In this document: positions 10,055 through 55,988 of the stretch, one piece after another
Layout of the letters: each line of letters starts with the position of its first letter
How positions within the stretch are numbered: position 1 is the first letter of the stretch
DNA from: Clostridium sp. CAG:524
GTDB taxonomy: Bacteria > Bacillota_I > Bacilli_A > RF39 > UBA660
Length of the DNA stretch: 64,000 bases
Direction: 5' to 3'
Assembly: GCA_000434555.1 (NCBI GenBank)
Contig: FR880111.1
Coordinates: 2,161-66,160 of the forward strand
Made by a program: the position numbers and the translations under genes
The notes under the pieces: generated by a model
Seen by the model: only the letters and a program-made list of their open reading frames with translations
The model's database searches: none
What the model was told of the DNA's origin: nothing

Positions 10055-10064
10055 GAGGTGTATT

Positions 10065-11114: not shown

Positions 11115-11122
11115 GGTAGCAT

Positions 11123-11698: not shown

Positions 11699-11714
11699 TT
11701 TAGAAAGGATTCAT

Positions 11715-12260: not shown

Positions 12261-12267
12261 CATATAC

Positions 12268-36600: not shown

Positions 36601-38083
36601 CTATAAATATAGTTGTACAGCAGGAGCAGCATCAGGATGTAAGAAAGGTGAACCAGGAAAAGATAAATGTAAAGTTAAAAATCAAGAGGCAGCATTATGG
36701 AGCGCATTTAAAGCAGCTGTTAATAATATTACGCAGTTAGTATATGAATTAGAAAACTGTAACTTATATAAAACTGAAGATTTAAAATTATATTATGATA
36801 GTGCAAGTTATGTAGATTTTAGCGGATATACTCCTCATAGACCAAAGTATCAAGGTACTTATACATCAGCAATTGATGGAGGTACAACAAAAGATTATAT
36901 TCTTAAACTTGCTAACTGTAAGAGCGAAAAAGGATGTATATCTTTAGACCTTGAATATGCAGATAAAAAATATGGTGCTGAAACAACATTTGGTAAAGAA
37001 GTAGAAATTGTAGCGCAAGATAAAAATATAAAAGAACAAGATTTAACACAAGACGCATGGTGCATTAATAGTAACGCTGGTGAAAAGAAAACTGGTAACT
37101 CATATAATGCAAGTTGTTATCCAGGACCTGGCAATACGGATGTTGATTTAACAGGAAAAAATGTAAAAGGAGAACATGATTTAGTATCTTGCAAAGGATA
37201 TGATACTAACGCACAATGTAAAGTAAATCAAGTTACAGGTGAAAAAATTGAACTTCCAATCAATGACTTTGCAATATTCACAGTAGTAAGTGAAGCTGAT
37301 TTCTGGCAACCTAAGAGATATTCAACAGAAGTTTATACAGGTAATGTATTTGAAAGCGGTTCATCATACGGAGCTTCAACAACAAGCTTACCACCATATG
37401 TTTTCCCAGTAAGCATGGATAAAGAAAGCGGTGGTAAAACAGGAGCATATGATGTAAAACATAAATATAGTTACGTTGGTTCTGCTTTAAGTAAAGCACA
37501 ATTATTAAATGAAAACTATTATGAATTTACTTGTCAATATGAAGTATACAATATTACTAACTTATATGATTGTAAGGTTGGTACTGATGCAAATAAAAAT
37601 GCTGACTTAGAAACATGTAATAATAAGTGTTATGAAATAAAAGATGGAGTACCAATCATTCGTGATTGTGCAAGTTGGAATAATAGAACTAATGATTCTA
37701 AAGGATATGGATTTGTTTATAGAAATGTTGAGCTAAGTAAATTATTCCCAGCGCCAAGAAAAGTTGGAAATAACTGGTATACTCACGATAGTGAACGAAA
37801 AGCCATAGAGGCAACAGCAAGTGATATGTATACAGACAGTGAAAAATATTTAGAATATAGTTTCATATTAAACAGTGATTCTATCAAGAAACTTAGAAAA
37901 TATAACAAAGATAGAAATGGCGCCGGAGGTTACATTGACAATACTCTTAGGGGATGTACTATAACTGATGGATTCTATAATTGTTCAAGTTCATTCTTAG
38001 ACTTAATTAGAGATGATTCAAATAGTTTTGGAATAAAAGTTAATAAATCTGATGGAATATCAAGATATAGACAAGGATATTAA
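33683..38083 (+). CDS. Giant (1466 aa) Cys-rich secreted protein of unknown function
   Basis: Signal peptide is YKFLVLLLFSFSSIMYI. Dozens of Cys are present (not counted). A duplicated motif appears as CMRCCSGKNCSYKWGNPNKY and CYCCGASSQGCKYVWKKKGDP. There is no C-terminal TM or sorting signal. Confidence 0.7.
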   Translation: MKIKNSKYYKFLVLLLFSFSSIMYIKGDGGGSITITGSGKKFTDISFCGNTVIKSDAKTKTVTGQGKDKGTAMANAIKARKSAINSLPSGSTVIDSSSAVTCHVSPISNGGNKGGSGNGSSIGGGIIMEDMNYIEDDIYTVEKMSSNSCMRCCSGKNCSYKWGNPNKYRTCQRQSGVANEASCRAKNNKTTKKPGATVPANGCYCCGASSQGCKYVWKKKGDPIGGCAAQSKTYAECTGQNVAIKGYVCKASYTYTPAGKVNNGRAQLPTYKYDATDPNFANISEDAYCLQKGRPGPDSSSWSYTALDNFDISSCKTSGDNYQCGLAEIMCQTMDISVDENGKFTVKNNGKYSYSTVSTALRTWVAYDNSSIHDGGGVNTGGSGDDGFDYYSNTDVYSNSANYFLNKGGEVKKCGNSCPEGSENYGVLCYGDTNEQKNIQGVVDLLQNTRSGTSCLDKLNKTLNGNSGEDGNDATEGELSYGKPGIDIDLDKNSQTANVKVTFSKMKVGTTIISESTTNVEVPVKYCTEGSSGCTVIIEAFDAKGNKIADGQMGKCAKNYCEVKYKYKQMCEEKTQTAQDNYITAKVTVYTTSGAKGDNKAGALIKNYAKASGEVSQQFVSFDVKGVQDLLNGNPSSGGSTGGTETTTELSKGPVYTAKKSIVCPCDNKKRCDDFKVVNTLPSKCTDYDNFNQGLYDTYDEGKLEEPYMNCIMNACNVSQRNQYDFSKEYGVDVGICRIFCREEVEFYLANKTRVYAGMQFKYKIDEVPGVAKKRKLTNGNSLTSMVLQKRQCASEIYYDHRNPWYNYSTKDSKYDSYIKAGYDTWQKMYGKAVKDMVDAWSSWKAYETLHKKEGWGTCNPYLDHAPDVNCYSSGSGCPSSCPVSQTLPGFDYVYLWPPKGSTVNNTKSDTGNPGYSYNNKSEDTNNKVTFNVNNRNNRPSDQDGKYNQSNGSTSNVCGSYTCTDSKGKKDTCYKYSCTAGAASGCKKGEPGKDKCKVKNQEAALWSAFKAAVNNITQLVYELENCNLYKTEDLKLYYDSASYVDFSGYTPHRPKYQGTYTSAIDGGTTKDYILKLANCKSEKGCISLDLEYADKKYGAETTFGKEVEIVAQDKNIKEQDLTQDAWCINSNAGEKKTGNSYNASCYPGPGNTDVDLTGKNVKGEHDLVSCKGYDTNAQCKVNQVTGEKIELPINDFAIFTVVSEADFWQPKRYSTEVYTGNVFESGSSYGASTTSLPPYVFPVSMDKESGGKTGAYDVKHKYSYVGSALSKAQLLNENYYEFTCQYEVYNITNLYDCKVGTDANKNADLETCNNKCYEIKDGVPIIRDCASWNNRTNDSKGYGFVYRNVELSKLFPAPRKVGNNWYTHDSERKAIEATASDMYTDSEKYLEYSFILNSDSIKKLRKYNKDRNGAGGYIDNTLRGCTITDGFYNCSSSFLDLIRDDSNSFGIKVNKSDGISRYRQGY

Positions 38084-38103: not shown

Positions 38104-39237
38104 ATGAAGGAATCAGTTTGGGGATATTTAATACTAGTTCTTGGAATAGTTGTAATCGTTATTCTTCTTCTAATCCAAAGAATTACAACGACAACAGAAG
38201 AAGATTTCTATTTAGGACGTGAAGTAATGGAAGCATCAATGCTTGACGCAGTAGACTATGGTACTTTTAGAACAACCGGTAAAATAGTAATGTCAAAAGA
38301 AAAGTTTGTTGAAGTATTTATACGTAGATTTGCTGAAAGTATCACAAATAATAAAGATTATCAACTAGATTTTTATGATATATATGAAGAACCACCTAAA
38401 GCAACTGTTCGTGTAAGAACAGTAAGTGGTGATACAACATTAAATTCTGATACATTTGATATTAAGCTTGATACTTATATGCATGGTATATTAGAAAGCG
38501 TTTATGGTACTGAACCTGGTACTAATAGTACTCCAACTACACCAGGTAAAGGTAGTGGAACAGCTGGAATGGGTGCACTTACTCCATATGATGAAGCAGA
38601 AGAAGAAGAAGTTGAAGAGGAAGAAGAAACAAAAGAGGCACCACCACTATCTTGCGATGTACAAACTAAAAATACAAATTATAATACTAAATTTGCTAAT
38701 GGAGCTAACTTACGTGATTATGGATGCGGTTATACATCAATATCTATGGTAGCTAGAGCATTTGGTAAAAATGTATCACCAGAACAAGTTGCTAATGATA
38801 TTTGGGATGGACCAAATCATAATTCAAGTACACTTGCTGGTCAAGATTCTGAAGTTTGTGGAAAAAATGGTGCTAGTACAAGTACTTGTGGTAGAGTTAC
38901 TACTGGTACACTAACAAATGATAAATTGCTTGGAAAATATGGATTAAGTGGCAATGTACTATTTAATCAAAATACAAGTGAAGCAGATAGAAAGAAAGCA
39001 ATAACAGATGCATTGAATCGTGGAGAAGCAATTATCCTTAGAATACCTAATCACTATATAGCAATTTCCGGTTCACCAGATAACATTCAATTATGTAATC
39101 CTTGGGATAGAGAACAAAATGGTACTTATACAGTGGACAGTCTATTTAGTAATAGTGCTATTACTAACTGGCATGGTAAATGTGGTAGTACTAATGAATG
39201 TGGTATATGGTATGGTGCTTCATATTCAACTAAATAA
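38104..39237 (+). CDS. Pseudopilin-like N-terminus fused to a C39-like (papain-fold) cysteine peptidase domain
   Basis: The N-terminus is MKESVWGYLILVLGIVVIVILLLI. The linker is acidic (EAEEEEVEEEEE). The Cys box is DYGCGYTSISMVARAFG. The His/Asp boxes are IPNHYIAISGSPDNIQLCNPWD. Confidence 0.6.
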   Translation: MKESVWGYLILVLGIVVIVILLLIQRITTTTEEDFYLGREVMEASMLDAVDYGTFRTTGKIVMSKEKFVEVFIRRFAESITNNKDYQLDFYDIYEEPPKATVRVRTVSGDTTLNSDTFDIKLDTYMHGILESVYGTEPGTNSTPTTPGKGSGTAGMGALTPYDEAEEEEVEEEEETKEAPPLSCDVQTKNTNYNTKFANGANLRDYGCGYTSISMVARAFGKNVSPEQVANDIWDGPNHNSSTLAGQDSEVCGKNGASTSTCGRVTTGTLTNDKLLGKYGLSGNVLFNQNTSEADRKKAITDALNRGEAIILRIPNHYIAISGSPDNIQLCNPWDREQNGTYTVDSLFSNSAITNWHGKCGSTNECGIWYGASYSTK

Positions 39238-39263: not shown

Positions 39264-41801
39264 TCAACGCTTTTTTCTTATGTAAATAATTGTTACTATA
39301 AACGCTAAACTAGAAATAATAAGTCCAACAATAAATCCACTTGGAACATAGTTCATTTTTATATTATGTTTACCTTTATCTAAATCTAAACATATAAATG
39401 AATCAAAACATATATCATAATTTACTTTATTATCATCAACATAGATATTCCATCCTTTATCATATGGAATAGTTAATAATAATACATTTTTATCATTATT
39501 AACATCTATATTTCCTTCTATATGATTATCTTTATTATACTTAGTTATATTAAATTCATTTTTCTTAAGTTCATTAATTGTTTCAATATAATTATCATAA
39601 TCTATTTGATACCATATTAATGAATCATATTTTATTTTAGTAGCATTTGATTTAATAACAATTTTATATTCATCATTCTTCTTAATAAATAATGGTATTT
39701 GTTTATTATATACATTCTTTATTTCTTTATTGTTAATATAAACAGTATAAGAACCATCAAAAATGTTATTATTAAACATTATTGAATCAGGATTATTTTT
39801 TTCAGTTAGTTCAATATTCGGAATAAGAAATGCATCATTACTAGCTTTACCACTAATTACCGCATAGAAATTTTTATCTGGTATAATGTATTTTTTATTA
39901 TTATCAATTTTAATATTTGCATTATATATTTTAATATTATTATCTATTTTATATGTTTTAATATCAGTATTTAACATTGAATTAATTAAATTTTCAGTAT
40001 TCTGATAAGAACTATTACTTTCTTTAAATTTCTTATTATAAATCATATATCCTAAACTTAATGCATCTTTATTTAAATACATGTAAGGATTTTCATTATA
40101 AACATTTTCATAATACATTTCATCTTTACTACCATTTATATATTTTATACCAAGTAATGATGTTAAATATGGATTATAATTATTAAATTTTACATTTGTT
40201 TCATGTTTAACACTATATCCAAATTTTCTTAAAAAATTTAATATTTTAGCATTTCTAACTGAATTAAAATGATTTATGCCATTATAATTCAATAGGGAAG
40301 GTGAATTATATACAAGTTCGAAATCTACTTCAATTCTATAAAAATTATTATCTTTATTTTCAATTTCCTTTATCTTGTTTATTGCATCTTTATATTTATT
40401 TAAATATAATTTATAGTCTTGTATTTCAGGATGAATTTGAAGTATTGTAAAAGTTAAAATTATATTAAAAGTTATTTCAGTAAAGAATAAAATTAACAAT
40501 AATGTTTTAGTTTTTTTATTCTCAATTAAGAATACATACAATATAAGTAGAAGAAAACTAAATATTAGAGAAAAAATCTTAAAGCCATTATTACAATCAA
40601 TTTTTGATATAGGGTATAATGTTAATAATATAAAAGATATTATAATAATTAAATTCTCTTTTATATTAGTTTTATAAGTAATATTAGTTATTTCCTTCAT
40701 AGCAACAGTTATTAAAAAGAAAGAAAATGTAAATATATATCTATTAGGATACCAAATAGGTCTTTGAAATAATTGCCAGGCAAAATCTAATAAATTAAAA
40801 CTTATACTAAGTAAAAAGAATAATATGAAAATTAATGTAGTAATTCTTTCTTTTTTAGATATTTTTTTATTAAAGAAATATTTTATTACTAATATTATTA
40901 CAAATAATGAAACATATATATTAACCATACCATATTCTAAATCATAATTAGATGTAGAACCTGGTAAGAATTTATAAAATATATTTAAGAAGTTCATATT
41001 AAATTTGAAATATTCTGTTTTACTAGATGCATAGAGTAATGCTTTTCCTTTTAATAGTTCACTTGCTTCAGGAATAATTATTATCATACACATAAATCCT
41101 GAAAGTAAACTTGATATAATAAAGTCTTTAATAATATTTTTATCTAATTTATAAATAACAATATTATATATAAAATATAACAATGAGAATATACATACCA
41201 TATAACCAATATAAAAATTAGATATTATTGATAATGTAAGTGATATTATATAAAGTCTATTTTTTCTTTCATAAATTAATTTATCAAGACCTAAGATTAC
41301 TATAGGAAATAAAACAACTGTATCAAAATACATGTAATTAAAGAAATAGCATACATTATAAGCCATTAACGCATAACTTATACTAAATATAATATATCTT
41401 AAATTAGATTGATTTTTAAATTTATATTTTAAGTATTTACACATTGTAAATCCAGAAAGACCAATTCTTAAAAGAATAATAAATGTATAATATTCTAATA
41501 TATTTTCACTAGTACTAAATATACAAAGTAGGTTAGTTGGATTAAACATATAATATATACTAGTCGCATAAAAATTATATCCAAGTAATCCTTTAAATGA
41601 ATAGAATAGACTTTCATTACCAAGAAGAACATTTTTATAATAACTAGTAAATCCAGCATATTGATAATACCCATCATATTTTGATAGAACTTGTCCACCA
41701 AAAGGATATATCTTACAAACTAGACAGCATATTAACATTATTAATATTGGTACTATAAAAGCTAAAATTTCAGGTAAATGTTTTTTAAAATTCTTTTTCA
41801 T
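39264..41801 (-). CDS. YfhO-like polytopic membrane protein (GT-C type glycopolymer glycosyltransferase family)
   Basis: 845 aa. More than 12 N-terminal TM helices, a large extracytoplasmic domain and a terminal TM, which is the YfhO family layout. The neighbourhood is teichoic-acid related. Confidence 0.55.
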   Translation of the reverse strand: MKKNFKKHLPEILAFIVPILIMLICCLVCKIYPFGGQVLSKYDGYYQYAGFTSYYKNVLLGNESLFYSFKGLLGYNFYATSIYYMFNPTNLLCIFSTSENILEYYTFIILLRIGLSGFTMCKYLKYKFKNQSNLRYIIFSISYALMAYNVCYFFNYMYFDTVVLFPIVILGLDKLIYERKNRLYIISLTLSIISNFYIGYMVCIFSLLYFIYNIVIYKLDKNIIKDFIISSLLSGFMCMIIIIPEASELLKGKALLYASSKTEYFKFNMNFLNIFYKFLPGSTSNYDLEYGMVNIYVSLFVIILVIKYFFNKKISKKERITTLIFILFFLLSISFNLLDFAWQLFQRPIWYPNRYIFTFSFFLITVAMKEITNITYKTNIKENLIIIISFILLTLYPISKIDCNNGFKIFSLIFSFLLLILYVFLIENKKTKTLLLILFFTEITFNIILTFTILQIHPEIQDYKLYLNKYKDAINKIKEIENKDNNFYRIEVDFELVYNSPSLLNYNGINHFNSVRNAKILNFLRKFGYSVKHETNVKFNNYNPYLTSLLGIKYINGSKDEMYYENVYNENPYMYLNKDALSLGYMIYNKKFKESNSSYQNTENLINSMLNTDIKTYKIDNNIKIYNANIKIDNNKKYIIPDKNFYAVISGKASNDAFLIPNIELTEKNNPDSIMFNNNIFDGSYTVYINNKEIKNVYNKQIPLFIKKNDEYKIVIKSNATKIKYDSLIWYQIDYDNYIETINELKKNEFNITKYNKDNHIEGNIDVNNDKNVLLLTIPYDKGWNIYVDDNKVNYDICFDSFICLDLDKGKHNIKMNYVPSGFIVGLIISSLAFIVTIIYIRKKR

Positions 41802-41877: not shown

Positions 41878-41907
41878 TTGAAAAGAAATTATCTAATGTG
41901 TTATAAT
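41878..41907 (+). promoter_or_regulatory. Sigma-A promoter of the Tad-like locus (-35 TTGAAA, 18 nt spacer, TGn-extended -10 TGTTATAAT)
   Basis: TTGAAA at 41878-41883, TG at 41899-41900 and TATAAT at 41902-41907. Confidence 0.55.
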
Positions 41908-41926: not shown

Positions 41927-42760
41927 ATGAAGTCTATGGAGGGAAAAAGAATGGAAAATATAAAAGTTGCACTTAAAAGATTTTTAAAAAATAAAAATAC
42001 AGTTACTATTATTGCATTACTAACTTCACTTGCGATTCTATACTATGCATATAATTTAAGAATTAAGAAAGCTACTGAACCAATTAGTGTTCCATATGCA
42101 GTAAGAAGACTAGAGCCAAGAACTTTAATTGAAAATAAAGATGTTGGTATTAAACAAGTACCAGGTGGAATGGTAAATGGACGTGATGTAATTGCTAGTT
42201 CATCATTAATAGTTGGAAAATATGTATCAGAAAAAGTTGAAATACCACTTGGAAGTTTATTTTATAATGAAACAGTTGTTACTTGGGAACAACTACCATC
42301 AAGTTTATTTGAAGATATTCCTAATGATTACACAGTTATAACAATGCCAGTATCATTAGAAACTACATATGGTAATTCAATATTTACAGGTAACTATATA
42401 GATTTATATTTTGCTGGATATGACTATGATGATAAATTAATTGTAGCTAAGTTCATTGAAAGCATTAGAGTACTTGCTGTAATTGATGGACATGGAAATA
42501 ATATATTTGAAAAGAGTTCAAATGTTGAGCCTCCATCATACTTAATGTTCTCAATACCAGAGGATTTACACTTACTACTTAGAAAAGCAATATATAAAAA
42601 AGTTAATTTATTCCCAGTACCTAGAAATGCAGAATATTCTTTAAAACCAAACCCAACTAAAGTTAGTAGTACATATATTAGAAAATTAATTGAACAACAA
42701 ACTATTGATGTAAGTGAGAAAGATTTAGAATTAAATCCAATACAAGGAGGTAATCAATAA
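41927..42760 (+). CDS. CpaB/RcpC-like Flp pilus assembly protein (SAF domain), copy 1
   Basis: N-terminal TM is VTIIALLTSLAILYYAY. The SAF-like segment is RLEPRTLIENKDVGIKQVPGGMV. The probable true start is ATG 41951, 7 nt after GGAGGG. Confidence 0.6.
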   Translation: MKSMEGKRMENIKVALKRFLKNKNTVTIIALLTSLAILYYAYNLRIKKATEPISVPYAVRRLEPRTLIENKDVGIKQVPGGMVNGRDVIASSSLIVGKYVSEKVEIPLGSLFYNETVVTWEQLPSSLFEDIPNDYTVITMPVSLETTYGNSIFTGNYIDLYFAGYDYDDKLIVAKFIESIRVLAVIDGHGNNIFEKSSNVEPPSYLMFSIPEDLHLLLRKAIYKKVNLFPVPRNAEYSLKPNPTKVSSTYIRKLIEQQTIDVSEKDLELNPIQGGNQ

Positions 42761-43554
42761 TGAATGCATTAAAAAAGTTCGTAACTAATAAAACATTCGT
42801 AACAATTGCATTAGGAGCAGCTTGCTTAATCATTTTATATGTTGCATACACATATAGGGTTGGTAAAGAAATAAATAAAGTTAAAATATATGTTGCAAAA
42901 GAAAATATTCCTGCAAGAACAGAAATAACTGATAATTTAATTGAAGAAGTAGAAGTTGCATCTTCAATGTTAAGTAAAGATGTAATTCGTGATGTTAATA
43001 GTATAAAAGGAAAATATGTAAATTATAATACATATATTCCAGCTGGAAGTCCATTTTATGCATCAGCCATAATTGAATGGAAACAAATGCCTGATTCAGC
43101 TTGGTCAAGCATACCTACAGGAAATACAGTTTTCTCATTACCAGTGAATACAACTACAACATATGGTAACTCAATATTTCCAGGTGATAAAATAGATTTG
43201 TATTATGAAACTAAAGATGGTTCTGGAATGTATGTGTTTGGTAAACTAATCGAAGGAATTACAATACTTGCTGTTAAAGATGAAGATGGTGAACACATAT
43301 TTAAAAAAGGATCAAACCAAAAAAATGCTAGTGCATTAATATTTAGTGTTTCTGAAGAATATCATATTCTTTTAAGACAAGCTACATACTTAGATGGTTC
43401 TTTAGTTCCAGTACCTAGAAATAAAAATTATAATAAAAAAACTAATATAACAAGTGAGTATCTAAGACATTTAATCGAAAATAAATGTAGAATCATCAAT
43501 CCAGATGTTGTTGATACACCAGATGCTGGTGATGAAAATATAAAAGTAAAATAA
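42760..43554 (+). CDS. CpaB/RcpC-like Flp pilus assembly protein, copy 2 (paralog)
   Basis: TAATG overlap with the upstream gene. It has the same layout and shared strings with copy 1: TTYGNSIFPGDKIDLYY against TTYGNSIFTGNYIDLYF, and LVPVPRN against LFPVPRN. Confidence 0.6.
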   Translation: MNALKKFVTNKTFVTIALGAACLIILYVAYTYRVGKEINKVKIYVAKENIPARTEITDNLIEEVEVASSMLSKDVIRDVNSIKGKYVNYNTYIPAGSPFYASAIIEWKQMPDSAWSSIPTGNTVFSLPVNTTTTYGNSIFPGDKIDLYYETKDGSGMYVFGKLIEGITILAVKDEDGEHIFKKGSNQKNASALIFSVSEEYHILLRQATYLDGSLVPVPRNKNYNKKTNITSEYLRHLIENKCRIINPDVVDTPDAGDENIKVK

Positions 43555-43587
43555 TGATTTAAAGAAAAAATATAGAAAGGGATTCTA

Positions 43588-44928
43588 ATGGATAATGTTG
43601 TTTTTTCACAAATAGATTTTGGATTATTTATGCCTCTTTTAGAAAATGACGATATAACAGATATTTCATATTCTAATGGTGGTAAACAATTATGGGTAAA
43701 AACATTAAGTAAAGGTGTTTATCCAGTACACATTGATGGTATAAATAATGAAGTTGTAGAGAAATTAGCATTTCAATGTTCTAACGTTATGGGTAAGACA
43801 TTTAACATGGCTCATCCACTCTTAGATGCTGAAAGTGCTGAACTTCGTCTTAACTTTGTTCATGAATCTATTGCTACTAATGGCATAGCTCTTCTAATAA
43901 GAAAAACACCAGCAATGATAAGACTTAATAAAGATAAACTTGTTAAAGAAGATTATGTATCAGTTAAATTACATGACTTCTTAATTACATGTGTTACTGG
44001 TCACTGTAACATACTTGTTAGTGGAGAAACTGGTTCAGGTAAAACTGAGTTTATCAAATATCTTGCTAGTAAAATAAAAGAAGATGAAAAAATAATAACA
44101 ATAGAAGATACATTAGAACTTCACTTAGATAAAATATATCCAGATCGTGATATTGTAGCGATGAAAACAAATAATATTGCTTCATATTCTGATGTTCTTG
44201 TTGCTTGTATGCGTCAAAACCCAAGATGGATTTTACTATCAGAGGTTCGTTCAGCAGAAGCTGTTCTTGCTGTTCGTAACTCAATTTCTTCAGGACATAA
44301 TATCTTGTCAACAATACACTCAGACAAAGCATCAAGTATTCCAATGCGTTTATATTCACTTCTTGAATCTAGTCAAGATATAAATCAATTTGTTGCATCA
44401 ATGCATAGATATATTCAGCTTGGTATACATATAAAAGGATTTTTTTCTAAAAAGTATAATAGATTTCAAAGAGAAATTACACAAGTGGTTGAATTTTACG
44501 TTGATGATGAGGATAATGAAGCTAAAGTAAATGTACTTTATTCAAGAGATTTAATGGATAATGAAGTGTATAACAACCCAACTCAGCATTTAATTGATTA
44601 TCTAGCAAGCCAAGGTGTTATGATGCCTGAAGACCCATTTATACCAAAAGGTAGTGAGCTTAAATCAAGTGAAGAAAAAACAACTAGTGAAAATACTGAA
44701 ACAACAAATACTGATTTAAATAATAAACCTGCACAAACAAATAATGTAAAAGAAACTAAAACCACTGCTACTGCTAGCAATATAGTATCTGAGGTTCCAG
44801 TTCAACCAGGAATCACTCCAGTAAACAAAACACAAGAAATTAGTAATATCAATCAAAACGTAAATCCTGTAAATACAGGTGTAAACAATGTAAATAACAA
44901 TTCCAATCTTGAAATTGTTGAGATATAG
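43588..44928 (+). CDS. CpaF/TadA-type (VirB11-like) secretion ATPase with low-complexity C-terminal tail
   Basis: Walker A is VSGETGSGKTEF and the Asp box is IITIEDTLELH. Walker B is RQNPRWILLSEVRSAEA and the His box is SSGHNILSTIHS. The last ~100 aa are Thr/Asn/Val-rich. Confidence 0.85.
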   Translation: MDNVVFSQIDFGLFMPLLENDDITDISYSNGGKQLWVKTLSKGVYPVHIDGINNEVVEKLAFQCSNVMGKTFNMAHPLLDAESAELRLNFVHESIATNGIALLIRKTPAMIRLNKDKLVKEDYVSVKLHDFLITCVTGHCNILVSGETGSGKTEFIKYLASKIKEDEKIITIEDTLELHLDKIYPDRDIVAMKTNNIASYSDVLVACMRQNPRWILLSEVRSAEAVLAVRNSISSGHNILSTIHSDKASSIPMRLYSLLESSQDINQFVASMHRYIQLGIHIKGFFSKKYNRFQREITQVVEFYVDDEDNEAKVNVLYSRDLMDNEVYNNPTQHLIDYLASQGVMMPEDPFIPKGSELKSSEEKTTSENTETTNTDLNNKPAQTNNVKETKTTATASNIVSEVPVQPGITPVNKTQEISNINQNVNPVNTGVNNVNNNSNLEIVEI

Positions 44929-44939
44929 GAGGTGGAAAA

Positions 44940-45839
44940 ATGTATATTGAGATATTTGTTATTGCTGCTATAATTGCATTCATATATTTCTATCGTAAAA
45001 ATACTGGCGATAATTCATATAAATTTTTAGCAAATCAAGTAGCTGGCACATATGAAAAATATGCTCCATATTCATTTAAAGTTGTTCGTGAGAAAGCAAA
45101 AGAACTCGGACAAGAATATACAACACGTCAGTATGTAATTCAAATAGCATTATTTGGAGTAGGTGCTGCATTTATATCATATTTATATTTCTATAGTATT
45201 ATATGGAGTATAATTTATGCTACATGTGCAATACTTATTATTCCATATTTAACGTTTATGAGGTGCAAAAAAGCCTATAGTGAATTTATATTTGAGCAAA
45301 TACAAGTATATTCAACTAACGTAATTATGGAATTTAATACAACACAATCATTTGTTAAAGCGCTTGAAGGAGTAAGAGATTCTGGAGTTCTTGAAGAACC
45401 ACTTCTTGGAGATGTAAAAGAAATGATTAACATGTCATATGAAAATGGTACGATAGATGAAGCCATTAGATTCATGAATGAAAAATATGATTACTATGTA
45501 ATAAAGAATATGCATCAATTATTCATTCAAATTACAAAAGAAGGTTCTAAAGATTCAGGTGTTGCACTTGAAGGTATGCTTCAAGACATAGATATGCTAG
45601 TTGAAAATGTATATCGTGATAGAATAGATAGAACATCATTCTATAAACAATTTGTAACCTTCGGATTAGCACTATATCTATTAGTATTATTAGTTCAATT
45701 ACTTCTTGGTAACAACTCATATATAAAACTATTAAATAATCCTTTAGTTGTTATATTATTACATGGAGTAATACTTATAAACTCATATTTCTTACTATCA
45801 GGTATTAAGTATTATCATGAGGATGTGGGGGCTGAATAA
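44940..45839 (+). CDS. TadB-like (T2SS F-type) inner-membrane platform protein
   Basis: The topology is one N-terminal TM, two TM helices, a soluble helical domain and two C-terminal TM helices. It sits immediately after the ATPase gene. Confidence 0.6.
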   Translation: MYIEIFVIAAIIAFIYFYRKNTGDNSYKFLANQVAGTYEKYAPYSFKVVREKAKELGQEYTTRQYVIQIALFGVGAAFISYLYFYSIIWSIIYATCAILIIPYLTFMRCKKAYSEFIFEQIQVYSTNVIMEFNTTQSFVKALEGVRDSGVLEEPLLGDVKEMINMSYENGTIDEAIRFMNEKYDYYVIKNMHQLFIQITKEGSKDSGVALEGMLQDIDMLVENVYRDRIDRTSFYKQFVTFGLALYLLVLLVQLLLGNNSYIKLLNNPLVVILLHGVILINSYFLLSGIKYYHEDVGAE

Positions 45840-46630
45840 TGGAAATATTAATTGTTGGTATTATAATGATATTCTTATTTAATTATTTAAATTTGTTTAA
45901 TTTTAATAAGTTTGTCAGCGATAATAAATCTGTATTTAATAAATTAAAAGAAGACGATTACGAGTTCTTATTAGTTGCAAAGTATGGCGATAAAGTTGAT
46001 CCTATTTTAAGATATCAAAAAAGAGTTAAAACAGCTATCGTTACAATGTTAATAGGAACAATAGCAGCTATGACACTTGCAAATGATATTAATTTTGCAT
46101 TAAAGTTAGTTATAGCATTTGTAATTACTTATCTTATGTTTAAAGATGAATATAATAGGCTTAAATCATTTTATAAAGTGCATTTACATGATATAAACTT
46201 AAAATTACCATATTATTTAAAAAGTTTAGAAATATTAATTCAACATTACACTGTACCAGTTGCATTAACCAGAAGTTTAGAACAAGCTCCAGAAATGTTT
46301 AAACCTGGTCTACGTGAATTAATTGCGTCTATTGATGCTGGAGATTCTTCAGTTGAACCATATATGGCATTTGCAAAACGATATCCAGTTAGAGATTCAA
46401 TGAGAATGATGAGACTTCTTTATAGACTTAGTTTAGGTAGTCAAGAAAGAAAGCAAGAACAACTTGAAACCTTCTCAAGAACTATATCAGCATTACAAGC
46501 TAAATCAAGAGAAACTAAATATAAAGAAAGACTTGATAAGATGGAAAAGAAAACAATGACAATGCTTACTGCAACAGGAGCAGGTGTTATGATTATATTA
46601 CTACTATCAATCATGCAAATTATGGGATAA
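45839..46630 (+). CDS. TadC-like (T2SS F-type) inner-membrane platform protein
   Basis: 1-nt overlap with the tadB-like gene. The TM/soluble-domain layout is similar. Confidence 0.6.
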   Translation: MEILIVGIIMIFLFNYLNLFNFNKFVSDNKSVFNKLKEDDYEFLLVAKYGDKVDPILRYQKRVKTAIVTMLIGTIAAMTLANDINFALKLVIAFVITYLMFKDEYNRLKSFYKVHLHDINLKLPYYLKSLEILIQHYTVPVALTRSLEQAPEMFKPGLRELIASIDAGDSSVEPYMAFAKRYPVRDSMRMMRLLYRLSLGSQERKQEQLETFSRTISALQAKSRETKYKERLDKMEKKTMTMLTATGAGVMIILLLSIMQIMG

Positions 46631-46645
46631 TAATGTAAATTATAC

Positions 46646-46674
46646 TTGAATATAAAAATATTGTATTGTATAAT
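46646..46674 (+). promoter_or_regulatory. Strong internal sigma-A promoter for the pilin candidate (-35 TTGAAT, 17 nt spacer, -10 TATAAT)
   Basis: TTGAAT at 46646-46651 and TATAAT at 46669-46674. The RBS AAAGGAGGA follows at about 46689. Confidence 0.6.
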
Positions 46675-46704
46675 TAACTTAGATAATAAAGGAGGAAGAT
46701 ATAA

Positions 46705-46989
46705 ATGAAGGAAGCTACAGGAGAATTAAATATGACAGTTGTAACATTAGTAGCGGTTGCTGCAGTTGCTGCATTATTCTATTTCTTTTTATGGCCAATG
46801 ATTCAAAAAATGGTTGCTAATCAAACATGTAGTACATATGGTAATGGTTGGACAGCTAAATATGTTAAAGAAATTTCAGGAGCAACAGGAACTGATGCTA
46901 AGGTTAATGAGTATATGTGTTGTCCAAAAGATTCAAGTGGCAATGTTGTAGAAGATACTACAAAATGTATCAGTATTGAAAATAAATAG
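46705..46989 (+). CDS. Small pilin candidate (Flp-like size, non-canonical leader, 5 Cys in the C-terminal part)
   Basis: 94 aa. MKEATGELNMTVVTLVAVAAVAALFYFFLWPMI is a short charged leader ending in Gly followed by a hydrophobic helix. The C-terminal part contains the Cys-bearing strings CSTYGNGW, YMCCPKD and TKCISI. The gene has its own promoter and is followed by a hairpin. Confidence 0.55.
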   Translation: MKEATGELNMTVVTLVAVAAVAALFYFFLWPMIQKMVANQTCSTYGNGWTAKYVKEISGATGTDAKVNEYMCCPKDSSGNVVEDTTKCISIENK

Positions 46990-47027
46990 TAAATATTTGT
47001 ATATCAAAAATTAATATTAAATAAAGT

Positions 47028-47064
47028 GGCTATAGGTGATGTCATGTCACTTGTAGCTGTTTTT
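47028..47064 (+). terminator. Imperfect stem-loop plus T5; candidate partial terminator/attenuator after the pilin gene
   Basis: ggctataggtgat-gtcat-gtcacttgtagct forms a 13-bp stem including G.U pairs. It is followed by g-ttttt. Confidence 0.45.
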
Positions 47065-47084
47065 AATAAAGAGGGAAGTGTAAA

Positions 47085-47609
47085 ATGAGAGAATCTATTG
47101 GAGGATTATGGCTATTTAGTATAGTAATAACATTTATTGTTTTATTTGTAAGTTTCCTTGCATATTCAATTAGTTATACTAGAGCATTTAAGGTTAAAAA
47201 TGAAATAATTAATTATATTGAAAGAGCGGAAGGATTTACTAAGTCTGATAGGGATATCCGTTCTATTACATATGAAGAATTATCAGCTATGGATAATCCA
47301 ACAGTAGATATTCAAGCATATGTACAAATACAAAATATTGGTTACAATTATTCTATAGCAGATCAAGTTGATTGTAGTCAATATGGATATGGACATAATC
47401 AAGTTGGAGGTTATTGCCTTAAAAGATTTTGCCCTAATAATGAAAATGGTGCTAAAATATATTACAAAGTAACTACATTTATAGCATTTAAAATTCCAAT
47501 ATTAAATTTTATATTTAAAATTCCAATCACTGGAGAAACAAAAGCATTATATTATGATCAAACGTCTGCAATAGAATGTGATGAAATGCGTTATGGTTAT
47601 CAAAACTAA
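47085..47609 (+). CDS. TadE-like pseudopilin / minor pilin candidate
   Basis: The N-terminus is MRESIGGLWLFSIVITFIVLFVSFLAYSI. The extracellular part carries Cys in DCSQYGYGHNQVGGYCLKRFCPNN and IECDE. Confidence 0.5.
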   Translation: MRESIGGLWLFSIVITFIVLFVSFLAYSISYTRAFKVKNEIINYIERAEGFTKSDRDIRSITYEELSAMDNPTVDIQAYVQIQNIGYNYSIADQVDCSQYGYGHNQVGGYCLKRFCPNNENGAKIYYKVTTFIAFKIPILNFIFKIPITGETKALYYDQTSAIECDEMRYGYQN

Positions 47610-47624
47610 GGAGGTTATAAAAAA

Positions 47625-48569
47625 ATGAATGTAATGGTTGTTAATAAATACAAAGAACTTCTAATGGGACTTAACATTGAAGTTATGAAGTCCATGGAAG
47701 GTGTATTTAATGTAGATGAAATTATTGATACTTTCACTAATTTCTATTATGATAAAATGATTTTAGATATTACAGCTATTCGTGATTATCAAAATACAGA
47801 TAATTTACAAAAACTAGCTATGAATATCAATATGGAAAATGTAATATTATTACTTGATGATAGTCCTGAAACTGAAACTAAATCATATTTATCTAAATTA
47901 ATATCACTTGGTATTTACAATTTTACTCGTAATGCTGAAGGTATTAATTATTTGCTTGTTCACCCACATACATATAGAGATGTAGTAAATATTCATAATT
48001 TACAAGATTTAGATGGTGGATATGGTGAAGGTGGAGATACTACTATAACTAATAATTATAGTGGTAAAATGAGAATTATTGGATTTAAAAATATGACTCA
48101 ACACGCTGGAGCTACAACACTTATATATTTACTTAGAAAAGCTTTATCAGGTAATAAAACAGTTGGAGCAATTGAAGTAAACAAAGTAGATTTCTTGTAT
48201 TTTAATGATAAAGAATTAGTTAGTACAACTACATCTGAGTTACCTAAAGAACTTATGAAAAAACAATTATGTGACATAGTTTTAGTAGATTTAAATGATT
48301 ATGATGATGTATCTATATGTTCACAAGTATATTATCTAATAGAACCATCAACTATTATGATAAATAAGATGTTACGTAAGAATAAATCTGTTCTTGAAAC
48401 ACTTAAGAATGAAAAAGTAGTACTTAATAAATGTGTTTTAAATAGTGAAGATGTTGCTACATTTGAATATGAAACAAAACTTAAAGTGTTTGCGACTATA
48501 CCACCAGTTGATGATAGACAAGAAAATATAGAACCAATCAATAAATTTATTGAAAAAATGATTTTATAA
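47625..48569 (+). CDS. TadZ/CpaE-like protein: receiver-like N-domain plus degenerate ParA/MinD-type ATPase domain
   Basis: MRIIGFKNMTQHAGATTLIYLLRKAL occupies the position of the deviant Walker A but has no Lys-Gly-Gly. IVLVDLND is Walker-B-like. The N-terminal ~120 aa are CheY-fold-like (MILDITAIRD). Confidence 0.5.
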   Translation: MNVMVVNKYKELLMGLNIEVMKSMEGVFNVDEIIDTFTNFYYDKMILDITAIRDYQNTDNLQKLAMNINMENVILLLDDSPETETKSYLSKLISLGIYNFTRNAEGINYLLVHPHTYRDVVNIHNLQDLDGGYGEGGDTTITNNYSGKMRIIGFKNMTQHAGATTLIYLLRKALSGNKTVGAIEVNKVDFLYFNDKELVSTTTSELPKELMKKQLCDIVLVDLNDYDDVSICSQVYYLIEPSTIMINKMLRKNKSVLETLKNEKVVLNKCVLNSEDVATFEYETKLKVFATIPPVDDRQENIEPINKFIEKMIL

Positions 48570-48639
48570 TAGTCTATAATATTGACAAAATAGTATAATT
48601 TATATTAAAATTGATATAGAGAAGGAGAATGAAATAAAT

Positions 48640-48996
48640 ATGTTAGATTTAATTTATACGTTAACTATTAATTCAGCAAATGATTTGTGTAAACAAATGG
48701 AACCTATTCTTCGTTTAGTTGGTATTGTTGTATTTGCTATTAAGGTTGTTGTACCTATTATATTAATTGTTGTAGGTATGTTAGACCTAGCTAAAGCAGT
48801 TACTGAAAAGAATGAAGATAATATTAAGAAAGCACAACAAGCATTAATTAAAAAGGCTATTGCTGCTGTTATCGTATTCTTAATAGTTACTATTGTTGCT
48901 TTACTAATGAATTTAATAGGTAATAAAGATTATGAAAAATGTATGACATGTATTAATGATCCATGGTCATGTAGTACTGGACAAACAGGACAATAA
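48640..48996 (+). CDS. Small two-TM membrane protein with Cys-rich tail (VirB2/TrbC-like topology)
   Basis: The first TM is LRLVGIVVFAIKVVVPIILIVVGML, followed by a charged loop. The second TM is AIAAVIVFLIVTIVALLMNLI. The tail is CMTCINDPWSCSTGQ. Confidence 0.45.
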   Translation: MLDLIYTLTINSANDLCKQMEPILRLVGIVVFAIKVVVPIILIVVGMLDLAKAVTEKNEDNIKKAQQALIKKAIAAVIVFLIVTIVALLMNLIGNKDYEKCMTCINDPWSCSTGQTGQ

Positions 48997-49099: not shown

Positions 49100-51145
49100 A
49101 TGAAAAGGAAATTTGATTTTAAAAAGATATTAAAAAGTATTAAAAAGTTTATTACAAAGTATGCAAGTACTAATATTTTATTTTTAAGTTATGTAATAAT
49201 AAGTTTATTATTAGGATTTGCAATTAGATTATTTACTATAGGAGCACCTATATATTTTAGAGCAACAATAGCTGATTTAATGTTTGTTCTATTTGTTGGA
49301 GCATTTGGCTATTTAATAAGGCCTAGGTATCAATTTAGGTATTTTTTGATATGGATATTATTTTATACATTCTTATGTATAGGTAATACAATATATTACC
49401 AATTTTATCAATCATTCTTATCAGTAAATCTTATAAGTACTGCATCAATGCTTGGTGAAGTAAACGATTCAGTATTCGATAAACTAAATGTATATCAATT
49501 TTTATATTTGATATTTCCTTGTATATTTATATTTATACATACAAGGCTTAGTAAAAAGAACTATTATTTTGAAATAGAAAAGACTAATAAAGATAGAAAG
49601 AATTTTATATATACACTAGGAGCATCTGTAATATTTATAGTCATTATTGCATGTGGACTTACTGGTACAGATACTAGTAGACTTATTAAGCAATGGAATA
49701 GAGAATATTTAGTACGTCAATTTGGTATATATTCTTATACAGTAAATGATTTAGTACAAAGTGTGCAACCTAAAATAAATACTTTATTTGGTTATGATGA
49801 AGCAGCATTAAATTTTAGAGAATTTTACGCTTGTAAATTTGAAAAAGAAACTAAAGTAAATAAATATACTAATAAATTTAAAGGCAGAAATGTTATATTT
49901 ATTCATGCTGAAAGCATGCAGAATTTCTTAGTTAATTTAAAAATAAATGGCGAAGAAGTTACACCTAATTTAAATAAACTTGCTAGTGAGGGAATGTATT
50001 TTGATAGATTTTATCCTCAAATAAGTATAGGTACTTCTAGTGATACAGAATTTACATTAAATACTGGTCTTATGCCATCATCAAGTGGTACAGTTTTTGT
50101 AAACTATTACAATAGAAAATATTATGCATTACCTAATTACTTTAATGAGATGGGCTATTACACATTTAGTGCACATGCTAATGCAGCTGATTATTGGAAT
50201 AGAAAAACTATGCATAAGACACTTGGCTACAAAGATTTCTATGCTAAAGATACATTTGATGTTCCAACTGATACAAAATCTAAAGATTGGGTAGGACTTG
50301 GACTTAGTGATAAATCATTCTTTAATCAACTAATACCTATCTTAAAAAATATAAAAGAAACTAAATCACCATTCTATGGTACAGTTATTACATTATCAAA
50401 TCACTCACCATTTAATGATTTAACTAAATATGATCCATTTGAAGTAACAATGAAATACACTTACACAGATGAAAAAGGTAAGAAACAAGAGGGAGTAGCT
50501 CCATATTTAGAAAAAACATCTATGGGAAATTATATAAGAAGTGCACATTATGCTGATGCAGCTTTAGGCGAATTTATAAATTTACTTAGAGATAATGGAC
50601 TACTTGATAATACAATGATCATGTTATATGGTGATCACGAAGCAAGACTTTCTAAGAACCAATTTAATCTATTATATAATTATGATCCAGTAACACAAGA
50701 TATTAAAGACGAAAATGATCCTACATATGTAAGTATGGAAAACTATAATTATGATTTACTTAAAAATACACCATTTATAATATGGAATAATAAAGAAAAA
50801 TATAAAAAGACTATAAGTAATGTTATGGGAATGTATGATGTTCTTCCAACTATGGCCAATATGTTTGGATTTAAAGAAAAATATGCTCTTGGTCATGATA
50901 TATTCAGTGATAATGAAAAAATAGTAGTATTCCCTAATGGTAATGTTCTTACTAATAAAGTATACTATAGCAGTCTTAATGATGAATACGTAGCACTTAC
51001 AGATGAACCTATTAGTGTTGATTATATTGATAGTCTAAAGACTTATGCTTCTAATATACTTGAAGTATCTAATGGAATTGTAACACATGATTTAATAAAA
51101 AATGAAGAAGATAAAATAGGAGAATGCAAAAATGAAAAAAAATAA
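49100..51145 (+). CDS. ltaS: Lipoteichoic acid synthase family protein (LtaS-type sulfatase-fold)
   Basis: Five N-terminal TM helices. The extracellular domain carries FIHAESMQNF, the catalytic-Thr block GTSSDTEFTLNTGL, and MLYGDHEA. Confidence 0.8.
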   Translation: MKRKFDFKKILKSIKKFITKYASTNILFLSYVIISLLLGFAIRLFTIGAPIYFRATIADLMFVLFVGAFGYLIRPRYQFRYFLIWILFYTFLCIGNTIYYQFYQSFLSVNLISTASMLGEVNDSVFDKLNVYQFLYLIFPCIFIFIHTRLSKKNYYFEIEKTNKDRKNFIYTLGASVIFIVIIACGLTGTDTSRLIKQWNREYLVRQFGIYSYTVNDLVQSVQPKINTLFGYDEAALNFREFYACKFEKETKVNKYTNKFKGRNVIFIHAESMQNFLVNLKINGEEVTPNLNKLASEGMYFDRFYPQISIGTSSDTEFTLNTGLMPSSSGTVFVNYYNRKYYALPNYFNEMGYYTFSAHANAADYWNRKTMHKTLGYKDFYAKDTFDVPTDTKSKDWVGLGLSDKSFFNQLIPILKNIKETKSPFYGTVITLSNHSPFNDLTKYDPFEVTMKYTYTDEKGKKQEGVAPYLEKTSMGNYIRSAHYADAALGEFINLLRDNGLLDNTMIMLYGDHEARLSKNQFNLLYNYDPVTQDIKDENDPTYVSMENYNYDLLKNTPFIIWNNKEKYKKTISNVMGMYDVLPTMANMFGFKEKYALGHDIFSDNEKIVVFPNGNVLTNKVYYSSLNDEYVALTDEPISVDYIDSLKTYASNILEVSNGIVTHDLIKNEEDKIGECKNEKK

Positions 51146-51743
51146 GGGTAGAGGAGTAATTGTTATATTTATAATAGTAGGTATTATATTATTTGGATAC
51201 CTTGGATATAGAGTTAAAAATGATTTCTTTAAAGGCTCAGAAAGAAAGAAACTTGATTCTATAGAATTATATGGATATACTTTATCTAAGAATGATACAG
51301 AGATTTATAAAACATATTTTAAAGAGCTTAGTAAGGTATTAAATGAAAAAACTATAGATTATACTGAATATGCTAAATTAATCTCAAAACTTTTTGTAAT
51401 TGACTTGTATACTCTTGATAATAAATTAGCTAGTACTGATATAGGAGGTCTTGAATTCTTACATAAAGATTTAAAAGATAATTTTAAAGAAAATATGGGA
51501 AGTACATTATATAACTTTGTTGAAAGTAATATAGATGGAAAAAGAACACAAGAACTACCTATTGTAAAAGATGTAAATGTAAGCGATGTATTTGAAACAA
51601 AATACACATATAATAAAACTGAATATGATGCATATATAGTTAGTACTGACATTACATATGAAAAAGATTTAGGATACCCTAAAAGTATGAAATTAACTAT
51701 TATTAAAGATAATAACATATTGTATATTGTTAAAGGCGAGTAA
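51132..51743 (+). CDS. Membrane-anchored hypothetical protein
   Basis: 14-nt overlap with ltaS. TM is VIVIFIIVGIILFGYLGY. No family recognised. Confidence 0.5.
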   Translation: MKKNKGRGVIVIFIIVGIILFGYLGYRVKNDFFKGSERKKLDSIELYGYTLSKNDTEIYKTYFKELSKVLNEKTIDYTEYAKLISKLFVIDLYTLDNKLASTDIGGLEFLHKDLKDNFKENMGSTLYNFVESNIDGKRTQELPIVKDVNVSDVFETKYTYNKTEYDAYIVSTDITYEKDLGYPKSMKLTIIKDNNILYIVKGE

Positions 51744-55978: not shown

Positions 55979-55988
55979 TTATCTCTCC

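Follow-up and report, generated by a model that had tools for sequence, protein, structure and literature searches.

Which kind of surface machine is encoded by a run of nine genes in an uncultured gut bacterium, and does it build a pilus? The nine consecutive plus-strand open reading frames (ORFs) lie at positions 41927-48996 of a stretch of 64,000 nucleotides from Clostridium sp. CAG:524 (assembly GCA_000434555.1, contig FR880111.1, positions 2,161 to 66,160), which is called the window throughout. The window has about 25% G+C, and neither a tRNA gene nor a match to an Rfam family was found in it. An earlier note, made from its sequence, had placed a Tad/Flp-like pilus locus of a monoderm at exactly these coordinates. 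The ATPase, the CpaB proteins and the TadB/TadC pair support a Tad-type (type IVc-like) machine of a walled monoderm, and what the locus encodes is probably a Tad-lineage machine for type IV filaments, adapted to a monoderm whose wall contains teichoic acid. It is still a variant of a known machine, and a predictable one. Its genes (product lengths in amino acids, aa) and putative expression signals are as follows.

41878-41907, + strand: promoter-like TTGAAA-18-TATAAT (11/12, with TG) 5' of the first cpaB gene; consensus match only
41927-42760, + strand: CpaB/RcpC-like protein 1 (N-terminal transmembrane helix, SAF-like and RcpC domains); TIGR03177, RcpC, hhalign
42760-43554, + strand: CpaB/RcpC-like protein 2; TIGR03177, RcpC, hidden Markov model (HMM)
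43588-44928, + strand: CpaF/VirB11/FlaI-group secretion ATPase; Pfam T2SSE, PDB, hhalign
44940-45839, + strand: TadB-type inner-membrane platform protein, highly diverged T2SSF; profile-profile comparison
45839-46630, + strand: TadC-type platform protein; profile-profile comparison
46646-46674, + strand: promoter-like TTGAAT-17-TATAAT, then a strong AAGGAGG ribosome-binding site; consensus match
46705-46989, + strand: 94-aa candidate major pilin; conservation pattern
47027-47064, + strand: intrinsic-terminator-like hairpin, 14-bp stem and U5; folding energy against shuffles
47085-47609, + strand: 174-aa pilin-like protein, candidate minor pilin; hhalign to DUF4320-like proteins
47625-48569, + strand: 314-aa putative TadZ/CpaE-like protein; AlphaFold2 (AF2) and Foldseek, motif conservation
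48582-48611, + strand: promoter-like TTGACA-18-TAAAAT (11/12) 5' of the 118-aa gene; consensus match
48640-48996, + strand: 118-aa protein with two transmembrane segments; PF18895

Motor, platform and CpaB proteins

The ATPase matches Pfam T2SSE at 2.9e-27, and its best relatives in the PDB are CpaF (3.6e-18), then archaeal GspE (afGspE) and FlaI, then VirB11. Profile comparison with CpaF by hhalign gave 99.8%. The Walker A motif GETGSGKT, the Walker B region ILLSEVR and the His box TIHS are intact and invariant. In the NCBIfam ranking VirB11 is the top model (108 bits), and ComGA, at 75 bits, lies below VirB11, TrbB, TadA and FlaI. Residues ~360-446 form a low-complexity tail rich in Thr, Asn and Val, which varies in length and sequence between species (proteins of 341-484 aa) and ends in a conserved LEIVEI; this end may serve for docking, as a peptide carried by a flexible linker.

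The two CpaB-like proteins are about 39% identical to each other. The motifs TTYGNSIF.G..IDLY and PVPRN, on which their description as paralogs had been based, are conserved across the orthologs, and the duplication itself recurs: of 68 relatives, 51 have two copies and 17 a single one. Against TIGR03177 and Pfam RcpC the first copy scored 5.3e-06 and 0.0048 and the second 1.6e-13 and 2.8e-06, all under the curated cutoffs. The profile of the first copy aligned with proteobacterial CpaB (hhalign 96%, E 4.6e-09), and the family HMMs of copies 1 and 2 recovered the annotated CpaB of plasmid pXO1 at 1.4e-38 and 7.4e-35, respectively. The sole PDB match of a joint CpaB profile was RcpC (9gzr, E 0.25). 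The second copy is assigned to CpaB by its NCBIfam, Pfam and HMM matches. Translation of the first copy probably starts at Met9 (41951), because its first 8 residues are gapped in most orthologs.

Recognition of the platform proteins depended on the breadth of the profiles. Profiles built from RF39 sequences only aligned weakly with canonical TadB/C (hhalign 8.7-14%), and 90-97% was reached only with profiles enlarged by remote and plasmid homologs. An exhaustive HMMER search with the TadB profile provided 293 representatives; the remote TadB homologs served only for broadening the profile, and Pfam T2SSF was found in none of 10 full-length ones. The TadB family HMM matched a Priestia koreensis plasmid protein annotated by NCBI as 'type II secretion system F family protein' (2.3e-13), and the TadC family HMM matched the protein in the TadC position of the same plasmid locus (1.4e-18). 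The enlarged TadB profile reached 96-97% against canonical ones (E ~1e-9 to 1e-10; proteobacterial TadB: E 4.9e-09 over 208 columns), and the enlarged TadC profile 89.8% against canonical TadB and TadC (E 1.8e-06). Compared with each other, the enlarged profiles behaved as paralogs (95.5%, E 1.4e-08, 220 columns), while unrelated hhalign controls scored near zero. Because of the plasmid HMM matches and the enlarged-profile alignments we accept 44940-45839 and 45839-46630 as a TadB/TadC pair; their putative T2SSF membership is derived from profile comparison, not from structure.

Relatives were sought in a scan of one genome per species, in which more than 500 places encoded a relative of the ATPase; the 80 best were taken as related loci. 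These belong to metagenome-assembled genomes labelled Bacilli, Mycoplasmatota/Tenericutes, "Clostridium sp. CAG:1000/628", Erysipelotrichaceae or Ca. Onthocola, the last being "Bacilli incertae sedis" in the NCBI taxonomy; we take these names to correspond to RF39-type orders of GTDB. About 80 genomes of uncultured gut Bacilli with low GC, each standing for one species, have the genes in the same order. The arrangement cpaB(-cpaB)-ATPase-tadB-tadC was found in 76 of 76 related loci and the four downstream genes in about 41 of the 53 with enough flank, and since the order is kept to this extent chance is ruled out. In 12 more distant relatives the operon stops after tadC, housekeeping genes follow, and the pilin and cargo genes are unlinked from the core, so that split loci also exist in the lineage. 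Between species the ATPase is 59-96% identical. Genes for LtaS, LCP, YfhO, TagF-like, DltA/B-like and GT4 proteins surround the locus; because of these cell-wall neighbours the host is considered a walled monoderm.

Public contigs with exact copies of the window proteins number from hundreds to at least 1000; most come from gut metagenome assemblies (longest ~1.37 Mb), and the exact 94-aa protein is on at least 1000. The carriers therefore appear to be common gut bacteria, uncultured and with small genomes (longest contigs ~1.3-1.4 Mb). Retention of a multi-gene surface machine throughout the group suggests that it is probably central to attachment to host or partner cells. None of the thousands of homologs is annotated, and every subunit homolog found was unnamed or "hypothetical"; the subunits are thus invisible to current annotation. 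A literature search found no description of the locus of this lineage. For this abundant uncultured lineage the locus is a source of candidate adhesins and surface antigens.

Candidate subunits and the putative assembly

The promoter-like site and the hairpin reported for the 94-aa gene do flank it. With a folding energy of -18.4 kcal/mol (z = -5.23; none of 200 shuffled sequences folded equally well) the hairpin likely attenuates read-through into the downstream genes. The N-terminus MKEATGELNMTV and its hydrophobic helix are conserved and almost invariant among 46 orthologs, in which mean identity is 72% over residues 1-40 and 28% over the remainder. Cysteines had been pointed out in this protein, the 174-aa protein and the 118-aa protein; they were confirmed in all three, with 80-100% conservation across orthologs. 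In the C-terminal part of the 94-aa protein these are C42 (100%), C72 (91%) and C73 and C88 (80%). An invariant N-terminus, a variable Cys-bearing C-terminus and the expression signals are features of a major pilin, for which this protein is our candidate. It has no Pfam family. Its deviating leader had also been recognized: the Flp processing motif G/xTAIEYGL does not occur in MKEATGELNMTVV, whereas the canonical Flp genes compared show ESGATAIEYGL.

The 174-aa protein aligned with DUF4320-like proteins of Firmicutes plasmids (hhalign 80.8%, E 1.3e-05), and its family HMM found a homolog on a Listeria plasmid at 3.7e-06; comparison of its profile with the PDB gave only noise. It consists of MRESIGG, a transmembrane segment and a conserved helix AF.VKNEIIN.IE..EGFT with 2-4 conserved Cys, of which C97 and C111 are 100% conserved, and it is present in one or two copies per relative. 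A third pilin-like family was absent from the gene list of the earlier note. The gene at 38104-39237 matches Pfam DUF5411 at 3.9e-49 and Peptidase_C39_2 at 1.6e-06, and its product begins, like a pilin, with MKESVWG, a transmembrane segment and a conserved helix. In 57 of 68 relatives the DUF5411 gene lies immediately 5' of cpaB, with variable C-terminal extensions (135-573 aa), and homologs exist in pXO1 and the P. koreensis plasmid.

The three families have in common a leader M[KR]E[SA]..G and, after it, a hydrophobic helix. It resembles a short class III leader and would be cleaved after the Gly. The N-methylation motif G/FTL.E was not found in any of the three N-termini.

Two further proteins of the window have N-termini of a related kind. 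A 752-aa surface protein with DUF285/PARCEL repeats (26091-28349, + strand) begins with MNKIINGSNKYLLIIEMLVVISIV, which resembles a type IV prepilin leader and helix with the Glu out of register; a true class III signal in this place would require that the genome encodes a prepilin peptidase at some other site. A 203-aa protein without known domain (p203; 51132-51743, + strand) has a class-III-like N-terminus of MKKNKGRG and a hydrophobic helix, and is encoded 3' of ltaS in about 20 relatives.

The 314-aa protein had been described as TadZ/CpaE-like with a degenerate P-loop. The dead P-loop was confirmed: the motif IIGFKNMTQHAGATT has Ala in place of the Walker A Lys, and H160, A161, G162 and T164 are invariant in 36 homologs. 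A MinD/ParA fold was found for the C-terminal part, residues 150-314 of the AF2 model reaching a predicted local distance difference test score (pLDDT) of 80-92. The top Foldseek match was Mrp/MinD-type HypB (2.9e-05), followed by ParA-like proteins, FlhG, FleN and BcsQ. A link to CpaE in sequence was not obtained, and we call the protein TadZ-like with reservations.

The two-transmembrane hairpin of the 118-aa protein was likewise seen, but its relation to the T4SS_pilin (VirB2-like) family PF18895 had been overlooked. The window protein matches this model at 0.0018 (18.7 bits, cutoff 26.6). C17 (100% conserved), C101 (98%) and C104 (93%) are located before the first and after the second transmembrane segment. 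The protein was detected in 42 of 53 loci (one copy in 24, two in 16, up to four) and not in 11. Its HMM did not match the TrbC/VirB2 protein of pXO2, and its profile gave only noise against the PDB.

Taken as a Tad-type machine, the locus suggests the following mode of action. A hexameric ATPase of the CpaF/VirB11 group would dock on a platform of TadB/TadC-type paralogs and, driven by ATP, lift membrane-embedded pilins into a helical fibre. As the locus has a single ATPase, this enzyme may power extension as well as retraction, like CpaF. The fibre would consist mainly of the 94-aa protein, whose gene would be strongly expressed from a separate promoter and shielded by the terminator hairpin, and the DUF5411 and DUF4320-like pilin-like proteins would prime or cap its assembly. 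The leader M[KR]E[SA]xxG would be cut after Gly by a prepilin-type peptidase encoded elsewhere. Outside the membrane the two CpaB/RcpC paralogs, with one transmembrane segment each, could surround the fibre as a ring or conduit. The MinD/ParA-like protein, being catalytically dead, may act as a positioning or scaffolding factor like TadZ, and a Cys-rich 1466-aa protein encoded upstream, together with its partners, would be the likely adhesive cargo for host or partner surfaces.

The Tad/Flp systems of Aggregatibacter actinomycetemcomitans and Caulobacter crescentus (Cpa) share with the locus a single motor of the CpaF/TadA group, TadB/TadC paralogs, CpaB/RcpC, a putative TadZ/CpaE-like protein of the MinD/ParA type, and a small candidate major pilin beside larger pilin-like proteins. 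In contrast to them, the locus has no RcpB, no TadD and no secretin, the lack of the latter having been anticipated in the earlier note, as expected for a monoderm, and its CpaB is duplicated. Its pilin candidate lacks G/xTAIEYGL and has a Cys-bearing C-terminus, TadE/TadF homology and a linked TadV are missing, the TadZ-like gene is located downstream and lacks the Walker A Lys, and a VirB2-like protein is added. The ATPase shows only 23-26% identity to CpaF, with which it is not specifically grouped. Features of the ComG pseudopilus were not found: the ComGA model ranked below the other four, and the platform consists of two single-domain proteins instead of a single two-domain ComGB.

Comparable is TANB77, an uncultured gut clade of Clostridia, for which a Tad-like cluster with unrecognisable pilins has been reported (PMC11680825). 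It is also a gut Firmicute with a reduced genome, with CpaB-TadZ/CpaE-TadA-TadB/C followed by small 'pilin-like' proteins with one transmembrane segment and no peptidase listed (PMC11680825). Compared by description only, it differs in a fused TadC-TadB, two MinD-like proteins 5' of the ATPase, an ATPase of 640 aa, and in belonging to the Clostridia rather than the Bacilli. Tad operons are also known in reduced Erysipelotrichales, where tadV is the first operon gene in Bulleidia extructa (PMC12786226). The Tad loci of B. extructa and Bifidobacterium breve resemble ours in the lack of a secretin and in a Gram-positive, host-associated carrier; they contain canonical Flp/PilA and TadE/TadF/TadG, none of which is recognisable in the window locus.

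Points of doubt and the relation to plasmid modules

A number of observations weigh against the assignment to the Tad lineage, beginning with the filament itself, which is predicted from the genes. The pilin and the 174-aa protein had been termed Flp-like and TadE-like, and neither name held: hhalign gave 1.2% for the 94-aa protein against canonical Flp and 0.2% against Flp-like pilins of Firmicutes plasmids, and 0.2% for the 174-aa protein against TadE, with no TadE Pfam match in any of 25 orthologs. The 314-aa protein reached 1.1% against CpaE and had no PDB-profile match, and the N-terminal part of its AF2 model has a pLDDT of about 30. Neither platform protein has a direct Pfam or PDB-profile match. 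The AF2 model of the TadB-like protein has a mean pLDDT of 58 (shallow alignment of 46 sequences, 76-96% identity); it was too poor for its Foldseek matches to be meaningful, and these were discarded. T4SS_pilin is matched by 17 of 25 orthologs of the 118-aa protein, the best at 9.2e-07. A prepilin peptidase of the A24 family is absent from ~84 kb and from the neighbourhood of the 80 related loci. Finally, the Firmicutes clade to which the ATPase belongs is about equally far (23-26% identity) from proteobacterial CpaF and from TrbB/VirB11. In a neighbor-joining tree, computed without archaeal, PilB or PilT outgroups, the window ATPase and the "VirB11" ATPases of Firmicutes plasmids formed this clade with 90% bootstrap support, not separated toward either CpaF or TrbB/VirB11.

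Among annotated genes, those closest to the ATPase (26-35% identity) are "CpaF/VirB11 family" genes carried by pXO1, pXO2-type, Listeria and Priestia plasmids, and the same plasmid modules (pXO1, pXO2/pAW63 type, Listeria pLM1686, P. koreensis) hold the nearest annotated relatives of the window proteins in general. Of these plasmids, pXO1, pXO2 and pLM1686 are typed as conjugative and that of P. koreensis as mobilizable. The modules share DUF5411-like, ATPase, TadB-like and TadC-like genes, with CpaB only in pXO1 and P. koreensis; most also have a DUF4320-like protein, in pXO1 encoded upstream and unannotated in the downstream set. Window HMMs matched them at 2e-50 to 6e-62 (ATPase), 1e-9 to 8.5e-17 (TadB) and down to 1.4e-18 (TadC). 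They differ from the window locus in being plasmid-borne, those of pXO2 and pLM1686 adjoining conjugation genes, and in having one CpaB or none, an intact MinD-like ATPase between cpaB and motor (pXO1 and P. koreensis only), tiny Flp-sized pilins of 47-80 aa and, in Bacillus and Priestia, a small polytopic candidate peptidase. The window locus, in contrast, is chromosomal and core, with a Cys-rich cargo cluster and a sortase and no conjugation genes.

These relationships raise the question whether the locus is a domesticated conjugation apparatus of Gram-positive bacteria, i.e. a type IV secretion system derived from a plasmid mating-pair or adhesion module, in which the ATPase would be a VirB11 and the 118-aa protein a VirB2-like pilin. 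The plasmid clade in the tree and the VirB11 model as top NCBIfam match are in line with this, as are the T4SS_pilin matches among orthologs of the 118-aa protein and a TrbC/VirB2 gene located a few genes downstream of the homologous module in pXO2. Moreover, the conjugation literature names the pAW63/pXO2 ATPase VirB11 (PMC9673590). However, the Pfam families of VirB4, VirD4 and relaxase are missing from all window ORFs of at least 90 aa and from the called genes 10 kb beyond, and no VirB6-like protein was found in either set. The chromosomal neighbours LtaS and p203 are fixed across dozens of species, hence the locus is not mobile; judged from its sequence context it is chromosomal and vertically inherited. 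The plasmid modules themselves hold TadB/TadC and DUF5411-like proteins, with CpaB in two and DUF4320-like proteins in most, which makes them Tad-like rather than VirB-like. To our knowledge, VirB11 systems of the VirB/D4 kind have no TadB/TadC platform. The earlier note had named clustering of the ATPase and the platform proteins with conjugative or competence systems as a finding that would speak against Tad. For the ATPase such clustering exists in the 90% plasmid clade, but with modules that carry TadB/TadC homologs, and the window is free of VirB4, VirD4 and relaxase. Because of the Tad-like gene content of these modules and the lack of the three conjugation proteins in the window we place the locus with Tad, and regard a conjugative origin as unlikely.

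A more far-reaching version would unite the window locus and the plasmid "VirB11" modules in a distinct Firmicutes branch of type IV filaments, which combines a Tad motor, platform and CpaB with a VirB2-like protein and pilin families of its own (DUF5411, DUF4320-like, 94-aa), and which in the gut lineage does without classical A24 maturation. This is a speculative idea to which we give little probability. If true, Tad pili and the pilus-biogenesis part of type IV secretion would have their missing link in such a branch, and some Gram-positive conjugative plasmids would build Tad-like mating pili. That the locus is related to the "VirB11" modules on pXO1, pXO2 and Listeria plasmids suggests that these long-known conjugation genes are Tad-like pilus modules, and hints at Tad-like pili in Gram-positive conjugation or aggregation.

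Upstream cluster, export and subunit maturation

The Tad-type system extends further than 41927-48996. According to synteny in relatives these boundaries were drawn too narrowly upstream, and the system reaches to 30653. Five genes directly precede cpaB in relatives, encoding a class B sortase, two small anchored Cys proteins, a large Cys-rich protein and the DUF5411 protein. In the window these are followed by an unrelated gene.

30653-32260, + strand: class B sortase, 535 aa; TIGR03064 and Pfam Sortase; accessory, tied to the pilus genes by synteny only
32260-32916, + strand: 218-aa anchored protein; sequence features, conservation of the C-terminal tail, synteny
32997-33686, + strand: 229-aa anchored protein; sequence features, presence in relatives
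33683-38083, + strand: 1466-aa Cys-rich secreted protein, candidate pilus-associated adhesin; Cys count, orthologs, synteny
38104-39237, + strand: DUF5411 and Peptidase_C39_2-like fusion, candidate minor pilin; Pfam, synteny
39264-41801, - strand: YfhO-family membrane protein, not part of the system; Pfam YfhO, 4.2e-157

The minus-strand yfhO separates the DUF5411 gene from cpaB here and is missing at this position in nearly all relatives. A second YfhO gene is found about 17 kb upstream of the window start.

The sortase has an N-terminal cytoplasmic domain, one transmembrane segment and a C-terminal class B sortase domain (TIGR03064, 167.9 bits with a cutoff of 153.75; Pfam Sortase, 9.6e-13), and lies upstream of the pilus genes in 19 of the 49 relatives with enough upstream flank. 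The 229-aa protein, present in 43 of these 49, has an ectodomain with Cys between its signal peptide and its C-terminal transmembrane anchor. The 218-aa protein has the same parts followed by a cytoplasmic tail, whose end ...YRKIKHGI is nearly invariant in 29 orthologs. This hints at binding of a cytoplasmic partner, e.g. the N-terminal domain of the sortase or the MinD-like protein. Sorting signals of the LPXTG or NPQTN type were not found at any C-terminus in the window; the 218- and 229-aa proteins have only their transmembrane segment and a basic tail there. The 1466-aa protein carries a Sec signal peptide and 61 Cys (4.2%), matches no Pfam or NCBIfam model and has no sorting signal. Large Cys-rich orthologs (1000-1400 aa, 39-73 Cys) are present in 28 of 49 relatives, and in the plasmid modules a large surface protein, Ig-like, with thioester domain or SLH-associated, is encoded 5' of DUF5411. 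By its synteny, the 1466-aa protein is likely an adhesin presented by the fibre.

The cargo genes also allow a different interpretation, in which the machine is a short piston pseudopilus, similar to type II secretion, that exports the 1466-aa protein and its partners through the wall, or else a pilus for DNA uptake. Tight linkage of the Cys-rich protein, the anchored proteins and the sortase to the machine genes in many species fits export, a role in nutrition or uptake would agree with its being kept in small genomes, and Tad-type pili of Liberibacter are reported to serve for DNA uptake (PMC8513845). Yet the ordinary Sec signal of the 1466-aa protein means that no special translocation across the membrane is needed, core and cargo genes are unlinked in the 12 distant relatives, and ComEA and ComEC are not in the window. 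The C-terminal half of the 94-aa protein is strongly variable, as expected of an exposed fibre surface. A piston or uptake pilus therefore seems improbable to us compared with a Tad-type filament.

For maturation of its subunits a Tad-type filament would depend on a prepilin peptidase. The reported absence of an A24 enzyme holds for the whole window, where no ORF of at least 90 aa matches Pfam Peptidase_A24, and for the called genes within 10 kb past each window end. Ad hoc A24 HMMs gave no match, and a polytopic ORF with a GxGD-type motif was found neither in the window nor in the 80 related loci. The polytopic ORF at 51817, previously noted to lack the motif, indeed has none; it also has no family match, is conserved in the closest relatives only, and was rejected as a peptidase. 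While the locus thus has no linked peptidase, this is not the peculiarity it had been taken for, as an unlinked tadV is normal for such systems. In B. breve UCC2003, for instance, tadV is unlinked from the Tad locus.

Small polytopic proteins of 172 aa (P. koreensis plasmid stretch, 2461-2979) and 181 aa (pXO1 stretch, 17270-17815) are candidate peptidases of the plasmid modules. Their motifs TD(V/L)K and (P/S)GDTKM align with both catalytic Asp motifs of A24; they have no Pfam match, reached just 2.8% against A24 in hhalign and have no counterpart in the window. They may represent a very divergent family of prepilin peptidases. The C39-like domain of the DUF5411 protein was also considered as a leader peptidase in view of the GG at residues 6-7 of the 174-aa protein, and was rejected: the DUF5411 proteins of most relatives (135-160 aa) lack the domain, which moreover would be extracellular.

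Alternatively, the subunits might mature without an A24 peptidase, either uncleaved or cut by another enzyme. The empty searches around the locus point in this direction, and so do the leaders, which are unusual (MKEATG/ELNMT, no Glu at +5, no Flp G/xxxxEY) and yet common to three pilin-like families, as well as the candidate peptidases present in plasmid modules and missing from RF39-type loci. However, the search covered ~84 kb and 80 loci rather than whole genomes, and in the 12 distant relatives the pilin genes themselves are unlinked from the core, so that scattered genes are normal here. We know of no studied type IV filament system that works without such a peptidase. Unlinked or shared peptidases are frequent: tadV can occur as a "loner", different systems share a peptidase, and MSH loci exist without one (Denise et al., PMC6668835). 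We therefore consider A24-independent maturation very doubtful. An integrated conjugative element or phage origin of the locus is ruled out by gene content and fixed synteny.

Two other groups of surface genes were observed in the window. A second surface-structure cluster at 2547-19596 (+ strand), found in at least two other assemblies, comprises some ten ORFs that have no known domain, two genes resembling S26 signal peptidases (5499-6053 and 11715-12260), and a 2442-aa protein with BspA-type leucine-rich repeats and CBM2 (12268-19596); its layout resembles SipW-type fibre or sorting loci. At 54503-58175 (- strand) two surface proteins with cadherin-like domains are encoded, one of which also contains SH3_3 and a type I dockerin, a domain unusual outside cellulosome-producing Clostridia.

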